A stretch of DNA of 64,000 bases, taken from positions 672,001 through 736,000 of the forward strand of contig CAVPCT010000005.1 in NCBI GenBank assembly GCA_963702475.1, read 5' to 3'. Both the position numbers and the translations under genes were made by a program. Below the pieces are notes generated by a model. The model saw only the letters and a list, made by a program, of their open reading frames with translations, searched no databases and was not told where the DNA came from. Source of the stretch: an uncultured Thermoleophilia bacterium (GTDB lineage Bacteria; Actinomycetota; Thermoleophilia; UBA2241). This document shows positions 3,667-7,236 of this stretch, in pieces (positions within the stretch are counted from its first letter, which is position 1; each line of letters begins with the position of its first letter).

Positions 3667-5298
3667 CTACCCGCTCTGCCGCTCGGCCAGGATCTGCAGG
3701 GCCTCCAGCTCGTCACGCTCGAACCAGTAGAGGTCGCAGATGCTGCAGTAGTCCACCTCGACGGCGTGCTCGTAGCTGAAGTGGCGTCGCACCATGGCCC
3801 TGCCGCACCGCGGACAGGGGAGCAGGGCCGTCTGCGGCCGCCCGCGCGCGTGCACGGCGGTCCGCCGCAGTTCGTCGCCGCTGACGGAGAGCAGGTCGGC
3901 CAGCCTCTCCTGGTCGGGAGTGAACGCCGCCTCGCGGCGAGCGAGCATCTTCGCCACCTCGTCCGGCGTCACAAGGCGCCCGCCGCACGAGGGGCACACC
4001 GTGACCCGCAGACCCTCGTAGTCGGCGAGGGCGAGCGGCGCGGCGCAGGAGGGGCAGGACGCCGCGCGCCCGCTCGCTGTGGACGGCGTGCCGCGACCGC
4101 CCCCCGCCGAGGCCGCGCCGAGCGGGGCGGCCACGTGGACCGGCACCAGCGGCGCCACGGGCGGCGCGGGACGCCCTTCGGCCGCCCGCGCCGCCCCGGC
4201 CGCGGCGCGGCCCGCGTCGGCGAGGCTGACATGGCGGCCGGCGCCGCCGGCCGCCGGGGCGGGCGCCCAGTGCTCGCGTGCCCCGAACCTCTCCGAGGCG
4301 GCGTCCACTTGACGGGCGAACTCCTGGGGCGAGGCGGCGGCCAGCGTCAGCAGCGCGTCGACCCGCTCGCTCAGCGGCGGGTGCGTGCTCGTCCAGCCGC
4401 GCGAGCCCCCCTCCACCGTGTCCCGGATGCACAGCGGCGCGAGGCCCTCGGGGATGTAGCCGACGCCACCGGGATGACGGCTGATGATGCGCAGCGCCTC
4501 GGCCAGGCTCAGCGGGTCGCGCGTGTACAAGGCCGCCGCCACGTCGGCTTGCCGCTCGCGCGCGCGGCTCAGGGCGGCCGACATGACGGAGGACGCCAGT
4601 TGCACCACCCAGAGCCAGGCGCGCACGCCGACCGCCCCTATCGCCACCGGCGCGGCACGCGTGCCGGCCGCGCCGACGGCGGTCTGCTCCAGACTCTCAC
4701 CGAGCGTCGAGTAGATGCCGAAGAGCAGGCACGAGACCGTGACCGTGACGTACGTCCCGGAAAGTACATGCGCGAGCTCGTGCGCCACCACTCCCTGGAG
4801 CTGCTGGCGCGACAGCCGCGCGAGCGCGCCCTCGGTGACCCCGATGACGCCCCCGCCGTGCAGGTCGCTGAACGCGAACGCGTTCAGGCCCAGCGTTCTC
4901 ACGGTCACGCACTCGACGCGCGGCGACCCCGTGGCGATGCGCATCTCCTCCACGACGTTGGCGAGCCGCTGGTGATACCGGTCCCCAGGATCGAGCGGCG
5001 CGCAGTGCATGGCCCGCAGCAGGCGGTCTCTGGCCCCCAGCTGAGCCGCGAACCAGTAGAGCATCGAGGCCGCCGCGGAGATCCCGAAGATCAGCCCCAC
5101 ACCCCGCAGCGTGAACACCCAGCTCACGGTGTCGACGAGCGGGAAGCTGACATAGAACGCCACCGTGACGATGAGGCAGAGCACCCACACCGAGGCGAAG
5201 ACCAGCGCCAGCAGCAGCGCGAACAGCAGCCAGATCCGCCAGCGCCTCTCGCGCTCGATGTCGAAGGGAGAGCGCCGCTGCTCCACCGAGGTGCTCAC
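3667..5298 (-). CDS. htpX: M48 (HtpX-like) membrane zinc metalloprotease with C-terminal zinc-ribbon domains
   Basis: NAFA, HELAH, SRARERQAD, THPPLSER; C-terminal CPSC/CPSC and CPRC/CSIC pairs. Confidence 0.85.
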   Translation of the reverse strand: MSTSVEQRRSPFDIERERRWRIWLLFALLLALVFASVWVLCLIVTVAFYVSFPLVDTVSWVFTLRGVGLIFGISAAASMLYWFAAQLGARDRLLRAMHCAPLDPGDRYHQRLANVVEEMRIATGSPRVECVTVRTLGLNAFAFSDLHGGGVIGVTEGALARLSRQQLQGVVAHELAHVLSGTYVTVTVSCLLFGIYSTLGESLEQTAVGAAGTRAAPVAIGAVGVRAWLWVVQLASSVMSAALSRARERQADVAAALYTRDPLSLAEALRIISRHPGGVGYIPEGLAPLCIRDTVEGGSRGWTSTHPPLSERVDALLTLAAASPQEFARQVDAASERFGAREHWAPAPAAGGAGRHVSLADAGRAAAGAARAAEGRPAPPVAPLVPVHVAAPLGAASAGGGRGTPSTASGRAASCPSCAAPLALADYEGLRVTVCPSCGGRLVTPDEVAKMLARREAAFTPDQERLADLLSVSGDELRRTAVHARGRPQTALLPCPRCGRAMVRRHFSYEHAVEVDYCSICDLYWFERDELEALQILAERQSG

Positions 5299-5362
5299 CT
5301 CCGGGCCGTCCGCGGCTTCACGTTCATTAACACTACGGAGATGGTTTCAACTACGTCAGCGA

Positions 5363-5371
5363 TGGTAATAT
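5363..5371 (+). promoter_or_regulatory. Extended -10 promoter (TGnTAATAT) facing the hairpin array
   Basis: tggtaatat in an AT-rich patch, 7 nt before the first stem. Confidence 0.5.
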
Positions 5372-5378
5372 ACCGCCT

Positions 5379-5524
5379 GCGTGGTGGAGTCCCCCTCCAC
5401 ATATCCCTCCACCGCGCTGGTACTCCCAAGTACCACCCCATGGCTCCTTTCACAAGCCCCTCTCCCCGAGGGGCTGCCCGGAAACGGGCGCGGGACGGCG
5501 GCGCGACAGCGCCGCCGTCCCGCG
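5379..5524 (+). ncRNA. Candidate small RNA with several C-rich (UCCC) loop hairpins
   Basis: Five consecutive stems, C-rich loops, a GAAA tetraloop and a G-U pair that works only on the plus strand; opposite orientation to both neighbouring genes. Confidence 0.55.
5489..5524. terminator. 16-bp GC hairpin, probably a terminator
   Basis: cgcgggacggcggcgc-gaca-gcgccgccgtcccgcg is a perfect inverted repeat just after the GATase stop. Confidence 0.65.
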
Positions 5525-5545
5525 TACGGGGCCGTGTCCTGAGGC

Positions 5546-6259
5546 TCAGCCCTTCGGCAGCAGGCCGCAGTGGACGACGAAGTTCTCCGTGATCCTGTGA
5601 CACAGCCGGGCGTTGGCGTCGAGATTGTCCTCCGTGTCCGTGCGCAGCTTCTCGAGCCACGCCGCGTCCACGTGCTTGAGGTTCCTCGCCGCGTCGTCCA
5701 CCCAGTGTGGGGCGATGGCGGCGTCGATCTCCGGATGGAACTGCGTCGCCCAGGCGTTGCCGCCGGCGCGGAAGGCCTGCACGGCGACGTCGCTGCCGGC
5801 CACGAGGTGCGAGGTGGTGGGCACCTTGCACGCGTACTCATGCCAGCTGAAGACCGTGAACGGCGACGAGATGTCGTGCAGCAGCGCGTCGTCGCTCGCC
5901 TTCTCCACCGACACCCAGCCGACCTCAGGCGCCTTGAGCCTGAAGACGTCGCCGCCCGCAGCCTCGCATACGAGTTGCGCTCCCAGGCACACCCCCCACA
6001 CCGCCCCTCCCTCGTGGATGACGTGGCGAAGGAGCCTGACCTCGTCGGCGAGGAAGGGGAACTGGTGCGCTTGATGGGTGTGCATCGCGCCGCCGAGCGA
6101 GATGAGACCGGCGGCCTCACCGGGCCAGGCCGGCAGGGCGTCACCGTCGTAGAGGCGGCGGACTTCGAACGGGACGCCGAGCGCGGTGAGAGCAGTGGCG
6201 ATGCCGGCGGGCGGATCGTTGGCGTCGTGCTGCAAGATGACGAGAGGTTTGGCGCTCAC
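5546..6259 (-). CDS. Type 1 glutamine amidotransferase (GMP-synthase glutaminase-like)
   Basis: SLGG, GVCLGAQL nucleophile elbow, QFHPE; GTG start after aaggag. Confidence 0.85.
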   Translation of the reverse strand: MSAKPLVILQHDANDPPAGIATALTALGVPFEVRRLYDGDALPAWPGEAAGLISLGGAMHTHQAHQFPFLADEVRLLRHVIHEGGAVWGVCLGAQLVCEAAGGDVFRLKAPEVGWVSVEKASDDALLHDISSPFTVFSWHEYACKVPTTSHLVAGSDVAVQAFRAGGNAWATQFHPEIDAAIAPHWVDDAARNLKHVDAAWLEKLRTDTEDNLDANARLCHRITENFVVHCGLLPKG

Positions 6260-6381
6260 GCGAGACTCCTTCTTCCGGTCCTTTGAGTATACCGCGCGCG
6301 CCGGCAGGCGACCTTGCCCCGACGGCCGGACGTCTGCCAGACTCGGCCCATGACCAGACCGCACACCACACGAGTCACTTC

Positions 6382-7236
6382 GTGAGCGCCCCCGCGGCGG
6401 ATGCGCCCGCCGTCGAGGTCGTCTCGGCCGGCAACGAGGTCCTCATCGGCGACGTGCTCGATACGAACACCAACTGGCTGTGCGTGAAGGTCACCGGCCT
6501 CGGCGGCCTCGTGCGGCGCACCGTGATGCTGCGCGACGAAGTGGCGACCATCGCGGCCGAGGTCCGCGGCGCCGTGTCCCGGGGACCTGCCCTGGTGTTC
6601 ACGGTCGGCGGGCTCGGGCCCACGGCCGACGACCGCACCCTCCAGGGCGTGGCGCTCGGTCTCGGGACGACGCTCGTGCTGCACCCGGAGGCCGAGCGGA
6701 TGATCGCCGCAAAATACGGGGAGTTCTACGCCTCGGGTCACGTGCCGTTCCCCGAGATGACCGAGAGCCGCCGCAAGATGGCTCGGCTCCCGGCCGGGGC
6801 GGAGCCGATCGTGAACCCGATCGGCGGGGCCCCGGGCGTGCTCTGCCGCGCCGGCGCCACGTGCGTCGTTTCGCTGCCCGGCGTGCCGGGCGAGCTGAAG
6901 GCGATCGTGGACGGGCCGCTCACGGGGCTGCTCGCCGAGGTGTTCGGCGTGGCGCACTACGAGGAGCGCTCGCTCACGGTCGAGCTTCAGGACGAGTCGG
7001 CGATCGCCGACCTGCTGCGCCACGCCGAAGGCGACCACCCGCGCGTGTACGTGAAGTCGCGCGCCAAGGTCATCGGCAGCGTCCGCGCGCTGCAGATCAC
7101 CGTGAGCGCGCGCGCTACCAGCGCCGGCGAGGTGGACGACCTGCTGGAGGCAGTGACGGAGCAGCTGCTCTCGGGCATCGGCGCGGCCGGCTACGCCGTG
7201 CGCCGCACGCCCGGGAGCCGGACGACTGACCGCTGA
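6382..7236 (+). CDS. CinA N-terminal/molybdopterin-binding domain protein (no C-terminal NMN deamidase domain)
   Basis: GNEVLIGDVLDTNT, GGLGPTADDRT, LPGVPGEL; start uncertain. Confidence 0.8.
   Translation: MSAPAADAPAVEVVSAGNEVLIGDVLDTNTNWLCVKVTGLGGLVRRTVMLRDEVATIAAEVRGAVSRGPALVFTVGGLGPTADDRTLQGVALGLGTTLVLHPEAERMIAAKYGEFYASGHVPFPEMTESRRKMARLPAGAEPIVNPIGGAPGVLCRAGATCVVSLPGVPGELKAIVDGPLTGLLAEVFGVAHYEERSLTVELQDESAIADLLRHAEGDHPRVYVKSRAKVIGSVRALQITVSARATSAGEVDDLLEAVTEQLLSGIGAAGYAVRRTPGSRTTDR

Follow-up and report, generated by a model that had tools for sequence, protein, structure and literature searches.

The DNA analysed here is a stretch of 64,000 nucleotides (nt; the window) from an uncultured Thermoleophilia bacterium of the Actinomycetota (GenBank assembly GCA_963702475.1, contig CAVPCT010000005.1, positions 672,001–736,000 of the forward strand). 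Close to its 5′ end, two minus-strand genes, one encoding an M48 peptidase and the other a class-I glutamine amidotransferase (GATase), flank a gap at positions 5299–5545. On the plus strand of this gap lies a predicted small RNA (sRNA), which appears from its sequence context to be a stand-alone gene running opposite to both of its neighbours. A preliminary description of the window had proposed a new sRNA at this position, built as an array of five hairpins with C-rich loops resembling the anti-Shine-Dalgarno (anti-SD) sequence and equipped with its own promoter and terminator. As far as sequence analysis reaches, the core claims of that description are supported.

RNAfold returned exactly five hairpins (H1–H5) for positions 5372–5530 of the plus strand, with an energy of -99.4 kcal/mol. 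Shuffled sequences folded at a mean of -62.0 kcal/mol, and 0/200 shuffles folded as well as the plus strand. The start of the sRNA is inferred from its spacing to the -10 element, and the 3′ end at ~5529 is likewise a prediction. The coordinates of all features are collected in Table 1.

Table 1. The predicted sRNA, its parts and control elements, and the neighbouring genes (positions in the window).
Feature	Position	Strand	Remarks
Predicted sRNA, ~150 nt	5379..5529	+	fold z = -9.68; full-length model R1 scores 178.7 bits here
H1: 11-bp stem, 17-nt loop UCCCCCUCCACAUAUCC containing CCUCC	5379..5417 (5379-5389/5407-5417)	+	
H2: UGGUACU-CCCA-AGUACCA; GGUAC(C/U) stem, C-rich loop	5418..5435	+	family-wide core
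Single-stranded linker CCCCAUGGCUCCUUUCACA carrying CUCCUUUC	5436..5454	+	8-mer of 16S 3′ tail
H3: 8-bp G-C-rich stem, loop UCCCC	5455..5475	+	core; terminator with U-tract in other genera
H4: GCCCG-GAAA-CGGGC	5476..5489	+	genus-specific; occupies the U-tract place of other genera
H5: GC-rich terminal hairpin, 15 bp, loop GACA, no U-tail	5490..5523	+	
Conserved 3′ tail GCGUACGG, overlapping the end of H5	5522..5529	+	TGCGTACGG in most of 31 same-genus copies
Upstream box TAACACT	5328..5334	+	near-identical in the 30 same-genus loci reaching it (one locus cut short)
-35-region block GGTTTCAAC	5343..5351	+	GTTTACAC in other genera; variable spacer after it
Extended -10 element TGGTAATAT	5363..5371	+	
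Divergent neighbour: M48 peptidase with zinc ribbons	3667..5298	-	Pfam Peptidase_M48, 72.8 bits
Convergent neighbour: class-I glutamine amidotransferase (GATase)	5546..6364	-	Pfam GATase, 58.4 bits
Next plus-strand gene: MoCF_biosynth-domain protein (CinA-N-like)	6283..7236	+	Pfam MoCF_biosynth, 90.3 bits

The linker and the loops are predicted to be accessible, with unpaired probabilities of 0.88–1.0. The H1 loop reaches 1.0, the linker has a mean of 0.88, and the 8-mer CUCCUUUC at 5444–5451, unpaired in the fold, has 0.94. The 16S ribosomal RNA (rRNA) of the same genome ends in ...GGAUCACCUCCUUUCUAGG (tail CACCUCCUUUCU), so CUCCUUUC is an exact 8-mer of the organism's own anti-SD tail; the preliminary description had noted a resemblance to the 16S 3′ end. 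The sequences around the 8-mer differ, reading GG-CUCCUUUC-ACAAG in the sRNA and CAC-CUCCUUUC-UAGG in 16S rRNA, and the sRNA is encoded by a small gene of its own rather than being a piece of rRNA. All coordinates previously given for the hairpins, the loops, the TGGTAATAT box and CUCCUUUC match the sequence, and the five hairpins are the same as those returned by RNAfold. The terminal hairpin, described as 16 bp long, is present at 5490–5523 but comprises 15 pairs in the minimum free energy (MFE) structure. H5 may serve as a terminator for both the sRNA and the convergent GATase gene. Considered as a general terminator tail, TGCGTACGG showed no genome-wide enrichment (19 sites).

When 60 relatives were searched with a BLAST-type method, 32 of the 36 genomes from the same genus yielded full-length matches (best E ≤ 2e-16); in the 24 genomes from other families, matches were confined to the GC-rich terminal hairpin. 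At the DNA level, the element is 75–90% identical across 31 loci of the genus, compared with 45–84% identity for the neighbouring proteins. The alignment of these 31 sequences contains 63 invariant positions out of 160, including loop bases of H1 and H3. In the linker, a run of 14 bases, AUGGCUCCUUUCAC, is invariant in 31/31 same-genus copies and near-invariant across genera.

To the family level, the distribution was followed with two covariance models. At E ≤ 0.01, the full-length model (R1) matched 73 of the family's 89 genomes (67 at E ≤ 1e-5), spanning 9 of its 11 genera; genera g31 (0/3) and g27 (0/1) and some members of the window's own genus gave no match. The core model (R2) matched 18 of 25 sampled genomes of the family; it matched none of 125 genomes from ten other families in this class and none of a 150-genome sample of the phylum. 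When metagenome contigs were scanned for an exact pattern, a further 63 contigs were retrieved, all of which match R2 at 53.6–101.9 bits; linker invariance in this set is forced by the search pattern and was excluded as evidence. Within the genomes sampled, these matches point to a conserved RNA gene confined to one uncultured family of Actinomycetota.

The proposed stems are borne out by compensatory changes. With the five-hairpin structure imposed on the 31 sequences, 94.4% of the cells pair, compared with 39.9–50.5% when the partners are slid by 1–3 columns. Changes on both sides occur in 18 of 45 pairs (87 cells) across the 31 same-genus copies, and 0 of 500 column shuffles reached the observed pairing, cell count or covariation score. 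RNAalifold independently predicted 39 pairs, 16 of them with compensatory changes. In the lower stem of H1, G-C becomes A-U in 7 rows and C-G becomes U-A in 8 rows; 5 of 10 scored pairs change on both sides there, and the helix is 97.1% paired. One H3 pair is U-A in 20 rows and C-G in 11 of the same-genus copies. Among 63 independent metagenome copies, which were aligned to the model and are hence biased towards it, one H3 pair is UA in 18, AU in 17, CG in 6 and GC in 2, and another is CG in 28 and GC in 14. H4 shows C-G to A-U (3 rows) and G-C to U-A (3 rows), and 7 of the 8 outer pairs of H5 change on both sides. The innermost pair of H2 is C-G in 34 rows and U-A in 2. By these alignments, H1, H3, H4 and H5 covary, and H2 is supported by conservation, with almost no covariation. 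The single-stranded C-rich and anti-SD-like parts are the most conserved, in agreement with the structure first proposed.

Comparison across genera shows that H2, the linker and H3 form a family-wide core and that H4 and H5 are genus-specific additions, so that only part of the five-hairpin array is ancestral. In the core, H2 reads GGUACC, a run of Cs, A and GGUACC; the linker reads (C)CCCAUGGCUCCUUUCACA; and H3 keeps a G-C-rich stem with a C-rich loop. In genera g22, g23 and g29 and in part of g30, UGCC and then a U-tract (UUUUUUC) come next after H3, which is therefore an ordinary intrinsic terminator there. In the window's genus, CGGAAAC stands at the position of the U-tract and gives rise to H4, with H5 as a further addition. 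The window's genus shares H1 with g30; in g22, g23, g24 and g29 it is replaced by a different hairpin, which again exposes CCUCCCC.

A further rearrangement was seen at four loci of g30 (L050, L056, L057 and L058), where the unit GCUGCCCGAAAYCAGGUCGCCCCCACGGCCYUUCGGGCUGCCC occurs twice in tandem 3′ of H3. This suggests a local duplication of the terminator region.

Upstream of the sRNA, the same pattern recurs across genera: the -35-region block, a variable spacer, and GTGGTAATA. The latter hardly varies among the 31 same-genus loci and also occurs in most other genera. In the genome that holds the window, the combined promoter pattern occurs solely at two sRNA loci, and no shared regulon is therefore indicated. 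The TAACACT box further upstream is kept throughout the genus, even where a kinase gene replaces the M48 gene, and is not conserved in other genera; it is possibly an operator, an UP-like element, or part (e.g. the -10) of a divergent promoter of the M48 gene.

The strand of the element can be read from several features. U-tracts follow H3 on the plus strand in 10/46 and 18/45 distinct sequences. Within the paired columns, G-U cells number 75 and A-C cells 16; a G-U pair closes H4 in 24 of 31 rows and H3 in 7 of 31. The conserved promoter, the U-tract terminators of other genera and the excess of G-U over A-C cells agree in favouring the plus strand, opposite to both neighbours, as had been proposed. 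The two strand pointers originally named for it, a G-U pair in H1 and a GNRA loop, are both present (the former as a U-G pair, 5382–5414, in the window copy), but the H1 G-U pair occurs in 1 of 31 copies and the GNRA loop is genus-specific. Taken with the conservation and covariation, we consider a real, plus-strand, structured RNA gene to be highly probable.

The surroundings of the sRNA are conserved as well. Family-wide, the gene order consists of a kinase and the M48 peptidase on the divergent side, the sRNA, the convergent GATase gene, and the MoCF_biosynth (CinA-N-like) gene on the strand of the sRNA. Among the scored loci from other genera and metagenomes (80 of 83; three failed the motif locator, and many contigs are truncated), an M48 gene was found upstream, on the opposite strand, in 63; downstream, a convergent GATase gene was found in 68 and a same-strand MoCF_biosynth gene in 63. 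The GATase gene is missing in seven loci (L062, L064, L109, L111, L117, L137 and L150). There, the MoCF gene begins ~190–650 nt from the linker motif on the same strand, either directly or after a small membrane open reading frame (ORF).

In the window itself, the minus-strand GATase ORF and the plus-strand MoCF_biosynth ORF share ~80 nt at their annotated starts (6283–6364). Alignments with relatives begin only at residue 50 of the MoCF protein and at about residue 20 of the GATase, and the true starts of both ORFs therefore probably lie further in. The block as a whole (M48, sRNA, GATase and MoCF gene) is present a second time in the assembly, at G000:C2:405525-405719 on the minus strand (locus L002). 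Its sRNA is 80% identical to that of the window and its neighbouring proteins are 54–80% identical. The estimated contamination of the assembly is 6.5%, and the bin is more likely a mixture of two species of the genus than one genome with a paralogue. Two sRNA copies were also seen in several other genomes, e.g. G006, G012 and G016.

Searches against Rfam 15 in gathering mode returned only two tRNAs for the whole window, both located elsewhere. In E-value mode, the best matches to 5250–5600 were symR, on H5 alone (27.8 bits; gathering threshold 61), and Scr3202 (18 bits; threshold 52), which are chance matches at the level of a terminator-like hairpin. Thus no known family was matched at its gathering score, in line with the earlier assessment that the sRNA could not be assigned to one.

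The closest likeness is to 6C RNA (RF01066; B11/ncRv13660c, scr3558), which is also a short RNA of Actinomycetota with runs of C in its hairpin loops. It has a strongly promoted stand-alone gene, and its last hairpin doubles as the terminator. Passages of PMC6486639 report that its C-rich loops pair with G-rich ribosome-binding sites (RBSs) of many mRNAs without a chaperone. The core model of our sRNA, with 72 positions, is also close in size to that of 6C, with 75. However, RF01066 gave no match at E ≤ 10, either in 5250–5600 or in the genome that holds the window (gathering threshold 47 bits). The 6C model reached its cut-off in 0 of 151 genomes of the class sample and in 6 of 151 genomes of the phylum; Corynebacterium glutamicum, used as a control, stayed below the cut-off, which shows that the sensitivity of this search is incomplete. 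Conversely, R2 scored at background level on seven true or near-threshold 6C loci (7.5–9.8 bits, E 0.86–2.8; filters off at the 6C positions of L095–L098). The two RNAs also differ in layout: at the seven loci the 6C hairpins abut, whereas H2 and H3 of the sRNA are separated by an invariant linker of 19–22 nt with CUCCUUUC, and the sRNA has H1, H4 and H5 beyond the two hairpins of 6C. Membership in 6C was rejected on these three grounds, namely no RF01066 match, no reciprocal R2 match, and hairpins that are not adjacent.

The 6C scan also picked up a sub-threshold match (35.3 bits) at a different locus of a same-genus genome (L094, G079:C150:13624-13697, minus strand). It consists of two hairpins with C-rich loops followed by AUUUCUGCGUACGG, sharing the UGCGUACGG tail seen after H5. 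This element, which had no homologue in the genome that holds the window and no Rfam match, may be a second sRNA.

In the Firmicutes sRNAs RsaE/RoxS and RNAIII, C-rich unpaired motifs pair with SD sequences and block translation. These RNAs are unrelated to the sRNA in lineage and sequence, and no Rfam match links the sRNA to them. For staphylococcal RNAIII, a UCCC motif is described in passages of PMC4615179. The same passages describe the cuckoo RNAs (cuckoo/CcsR, RSs0680 family) as two to four adjacent hairpins with the anti-SD-like, C-rich loop motif CCUCCUCCC, in which stems covary freely and loops and neighbourhood are conserved, much as observed here. In contrast to the sRNA, cuckoo RNAs belong to a different phylum (Alphaproteobacteria), and the same 9-mer recurs in every one of their loops. 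The loops of the sRNA read UCCCCCUCCACAUAUCC, CCCA, UCCCC, GAAA and GACA, CCUCCUCCC is absent, and the longest conserved element is the linker. With the 9-mer absent and no cuckoo family reached at gathering score in Rfam, membership in this group was rejected, too.

We regard the sRNA as a new family of a known kind, which would work like 6C, cuckoo and RsaE RNAs without belonging to any of them. Given that no sampled genome of the class reached the 6C cut-off, it may fill the functional role of 6C there. A literature search returned nothing on sRNAs of this lineage or on the motifs of the sRNA, and the only paper pairing 'Thermoleophilia' with 'sRNA' was unrelated. As far as these searches reach, no regulatory RNA has previously been described for this uncultured lineage, and the one described here is family-wide, single-copy per species, syntenic, and better conserved than its protein-coding neighbours. 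Its covariance model is ready for annotating metagenomes from soil, sediment and wetland. The sRNA also offers a test case for chaperone-free, G-C-driven sRNA pairing, possibly by mimicry of the anti-SD sequence.

We favour a reading, to which we assign a probability of roughly 0.55, in which the RNA is a trans-acting, Hfq-independent sRNA that would occlude RBSs by pairing with SD regions. It would be transcribed from its own extended -10 promoter, opposite to the flanking genes. The linker 8-mer and the CUCC/CCUCC motifs in the loops of H1, H2 and H3 would expose anti-SD-like segments, which would pair with G-rich RBSs (GAAAGGAG, GGAGG) of several mRNAs. This pairing would block binding of the 30S subunit, as for actinobacterial 6C RNA, and so repress translation. 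Support comes from the conservation, structure, strand, promoter and accessibility described above and from the presence of complementary SD sites in the genome. The complement of the linker 8-mer, GAAAGGAG, lies 3–10 nt before a plausible start codon at 23 of 84 sites, compared with 1 of 84 sites for its reverse complement, suggesting that GAAAGGAG is a genuine SD sequence in this genome. The N-termini encoded at these 23 translation initiation regions suggested, by eye, no obvious common function. Features generic to trans-encoded sRNAs are all found: a promoter, an intergenic site, a terminator formed by H3 and the U-tract (in other genera), frame-breaking indels, and an invariant unpaired linker. 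The gene for Hfq was not found in the genome that holds the window, while control genomes gave matches.

Data from RNA libraries are compatible with transcription of the sRNA and ambiguous on it. Logan contigs of RNA libraries were drawn from four studies (sediment, rice paddy, soil and wetland metagenomes); 21 runs were listed, of which 12, on record as RNA, hold 17–39% of the sampled words, and four were examined. Four contigs contain close relatives of the sRNA, at a depth of 2–10 and with 4–19 differences. One of them, X3, begins near the predicted start, at 5373. Uncovered flanks in these contigs are uninformative because the flanks are not conserved.

A number of observations weigh against this reading. 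The other three contigs overrun the predicted ends, X1 and X8 into the promoter and X4 past H5, which fits DNA carry-over or longer transcripts. The promoter and terminator first attributed to the sRNA have fared unevenly: the extended -10 element is conserved, but a simple sigma-70 scan with a 16–18 nt spacer rule found no promoter at the sRNA, and H5, with no U-tail, was passed over by a terminator scan. The distance from the -35 block to the -10 hexamer is only 15–17 nt, depending on the choice of hexamer. In 25 of 31 copies, the minus strand has the lower MFE (mean -91.0 compared with -87.8 kcal/mol); we attribute this to the extra G-U options of the G-rich strand and judge MFE an unreliable discriminator of strand. 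Two small, near-complete genomes of the same genus (G032 and G078, 98% complete) lack the RNA. The GGUA/UACC pairs of H2 are invariant in 46/46 and 45/45 distinct rows. The 19–22 frozen linker bases exceed what a seed needs and could mark a contact with a protein or the ribosome, and pairing with generic SD sequences is expected to have low specificity.

Target searches add to these objections. A search of the genome that holds the window for long complements (11-mer runs) found none of more than 12 contiguous nt outside the two sRNA genes. In a duplex scan of 48,566 GGAG sites, the top matches were mostly internal to coding sequences, of the form GGAGCC(A/G)UGG. The best match in a 5′ untranslated region (UTR) precedes a 528-aa ORF (G000:C3:982980-984563), which we take from its sequence to be a 4-hydroxybutyryl-CoA dehydratase/HpaB-like gene. 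It was rejected as a target: comparison of 26 orthologous loci showed that the site is not kept and that the ORF really starts 87 nt downstream.

Among the alternatives, the one that survives best, though we consider it rather unlikely, is a decoy or sponge RNA, whose GGUACC hairpin and 16S-tail-like linker would titrate a protein or the 30S subunit, and not particular mRNAs; a factor that normally contacts the 16S 3′ end would be an example of such a partner. The H2 stem, which never covaries in its GGUA/UACC pairs, would be explained in this way, as would the 14–22 single-stranded bases frozen across genera, including the exact 16S-tail 8-mer, and target searches that gave no specific mRNA. 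Set against it, no partner protein was identified, and the genes for CsrA and Hfq were not found in the genome. C-rich loops in three hairpins are also the classic signature of RBS-pairing sRNAs in the passages cited above (PMC6486639, PMC4615179), and the invariance is equally explained by many simultaneous mRNA targets. A more specific possibility, speculative and unlikely in our view, is a dedicated mimic of the 16S 3′ tail, in which the frozen linker, the GGUACC hairpin and the CCUCC loops would make a global competitor or decoy. It would either soak up SD-led mRNAs wholesale and so retune translation initiation, or draw away a nuclease or other factor recognising the anti-SD tail. If true, this would be control by ribosome mimicry rather than by gene-specific antisense pairing.

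A cis-acting leader or attenuator of the downstream MoCF_biosynth gene, with the GATase gene a later insertion, we regard as improbable. The layout would be a promoter, a structured RNA, a terminator formed by H3 and the U-tract, and the gene, and it agrees with the MoCF_biosynth gene's position on the same strand in most scored loci. The GATase-less loci described above keep this explanation alive for their lineages. However, in 68 of the 80 loci a convergent gene of ~800 nt intervenes, and the sRNA is equally conserved despite it, which favours a function in trans. In addition, H4 and H5 stand in place of the U-tract in the window's genus, no alternative anti-terminator pairing is evident, and no Rfam riboswitch matched.

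A minus-strand element, either the 5′ UTR of the M48 gene or an RNA with GGA loops that sequesters a CsrA-like protein, the latter raised as an alternative in the preliminary description, is very improbable. Besides the lower MFE, the minus-strand fold of 5299–5545 has z = -3.47, and its loops would read GGGGA/GGAGG. All the same, the closing G-U pair of H4 would become A-C on that strand, the promoter and U-tracts are oriented for the plus strand, the G-U/A-C counts favour it, and the element persists where a kinase gene replaces the M48 gene. The CsrA gene (PF02599) was not found in the genome that holds the window (93.8% complete), while control genomes gave matches; a sponge of the CsrB/RsmY type, whose GGA motifs would lie solely on the disfavoured strand, was accordingly rejected. 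A small protein gene is hardly credible: a 53-codon plus-strand ORF (5381–5542) and a 48-codon minus-strand ORF starting from an AUG complementary to the linker are both open in the window, but indels of 1, 2 and 3 nt in the loops of H1 and H2 shift the frame between close relatives, 14–22 consecutive bases are invariant with no third-position variation, and the substitutions in the stems are compensatory.

One further structured element came to light at the locus of the 528-aa ORF. Upstream of this ORF, behind a TTGAC-N17-TATAGT promoter, lies a GC-rich 5′ leader of ~150–200 nt (G000:C3:984564-984760, minus strand; locus L165/L166, orthologues L167–L195). The leader, for which Rfam gave no match, is kept in ~25 same-genus genomes and is a candidate cis-regulatory RNA.

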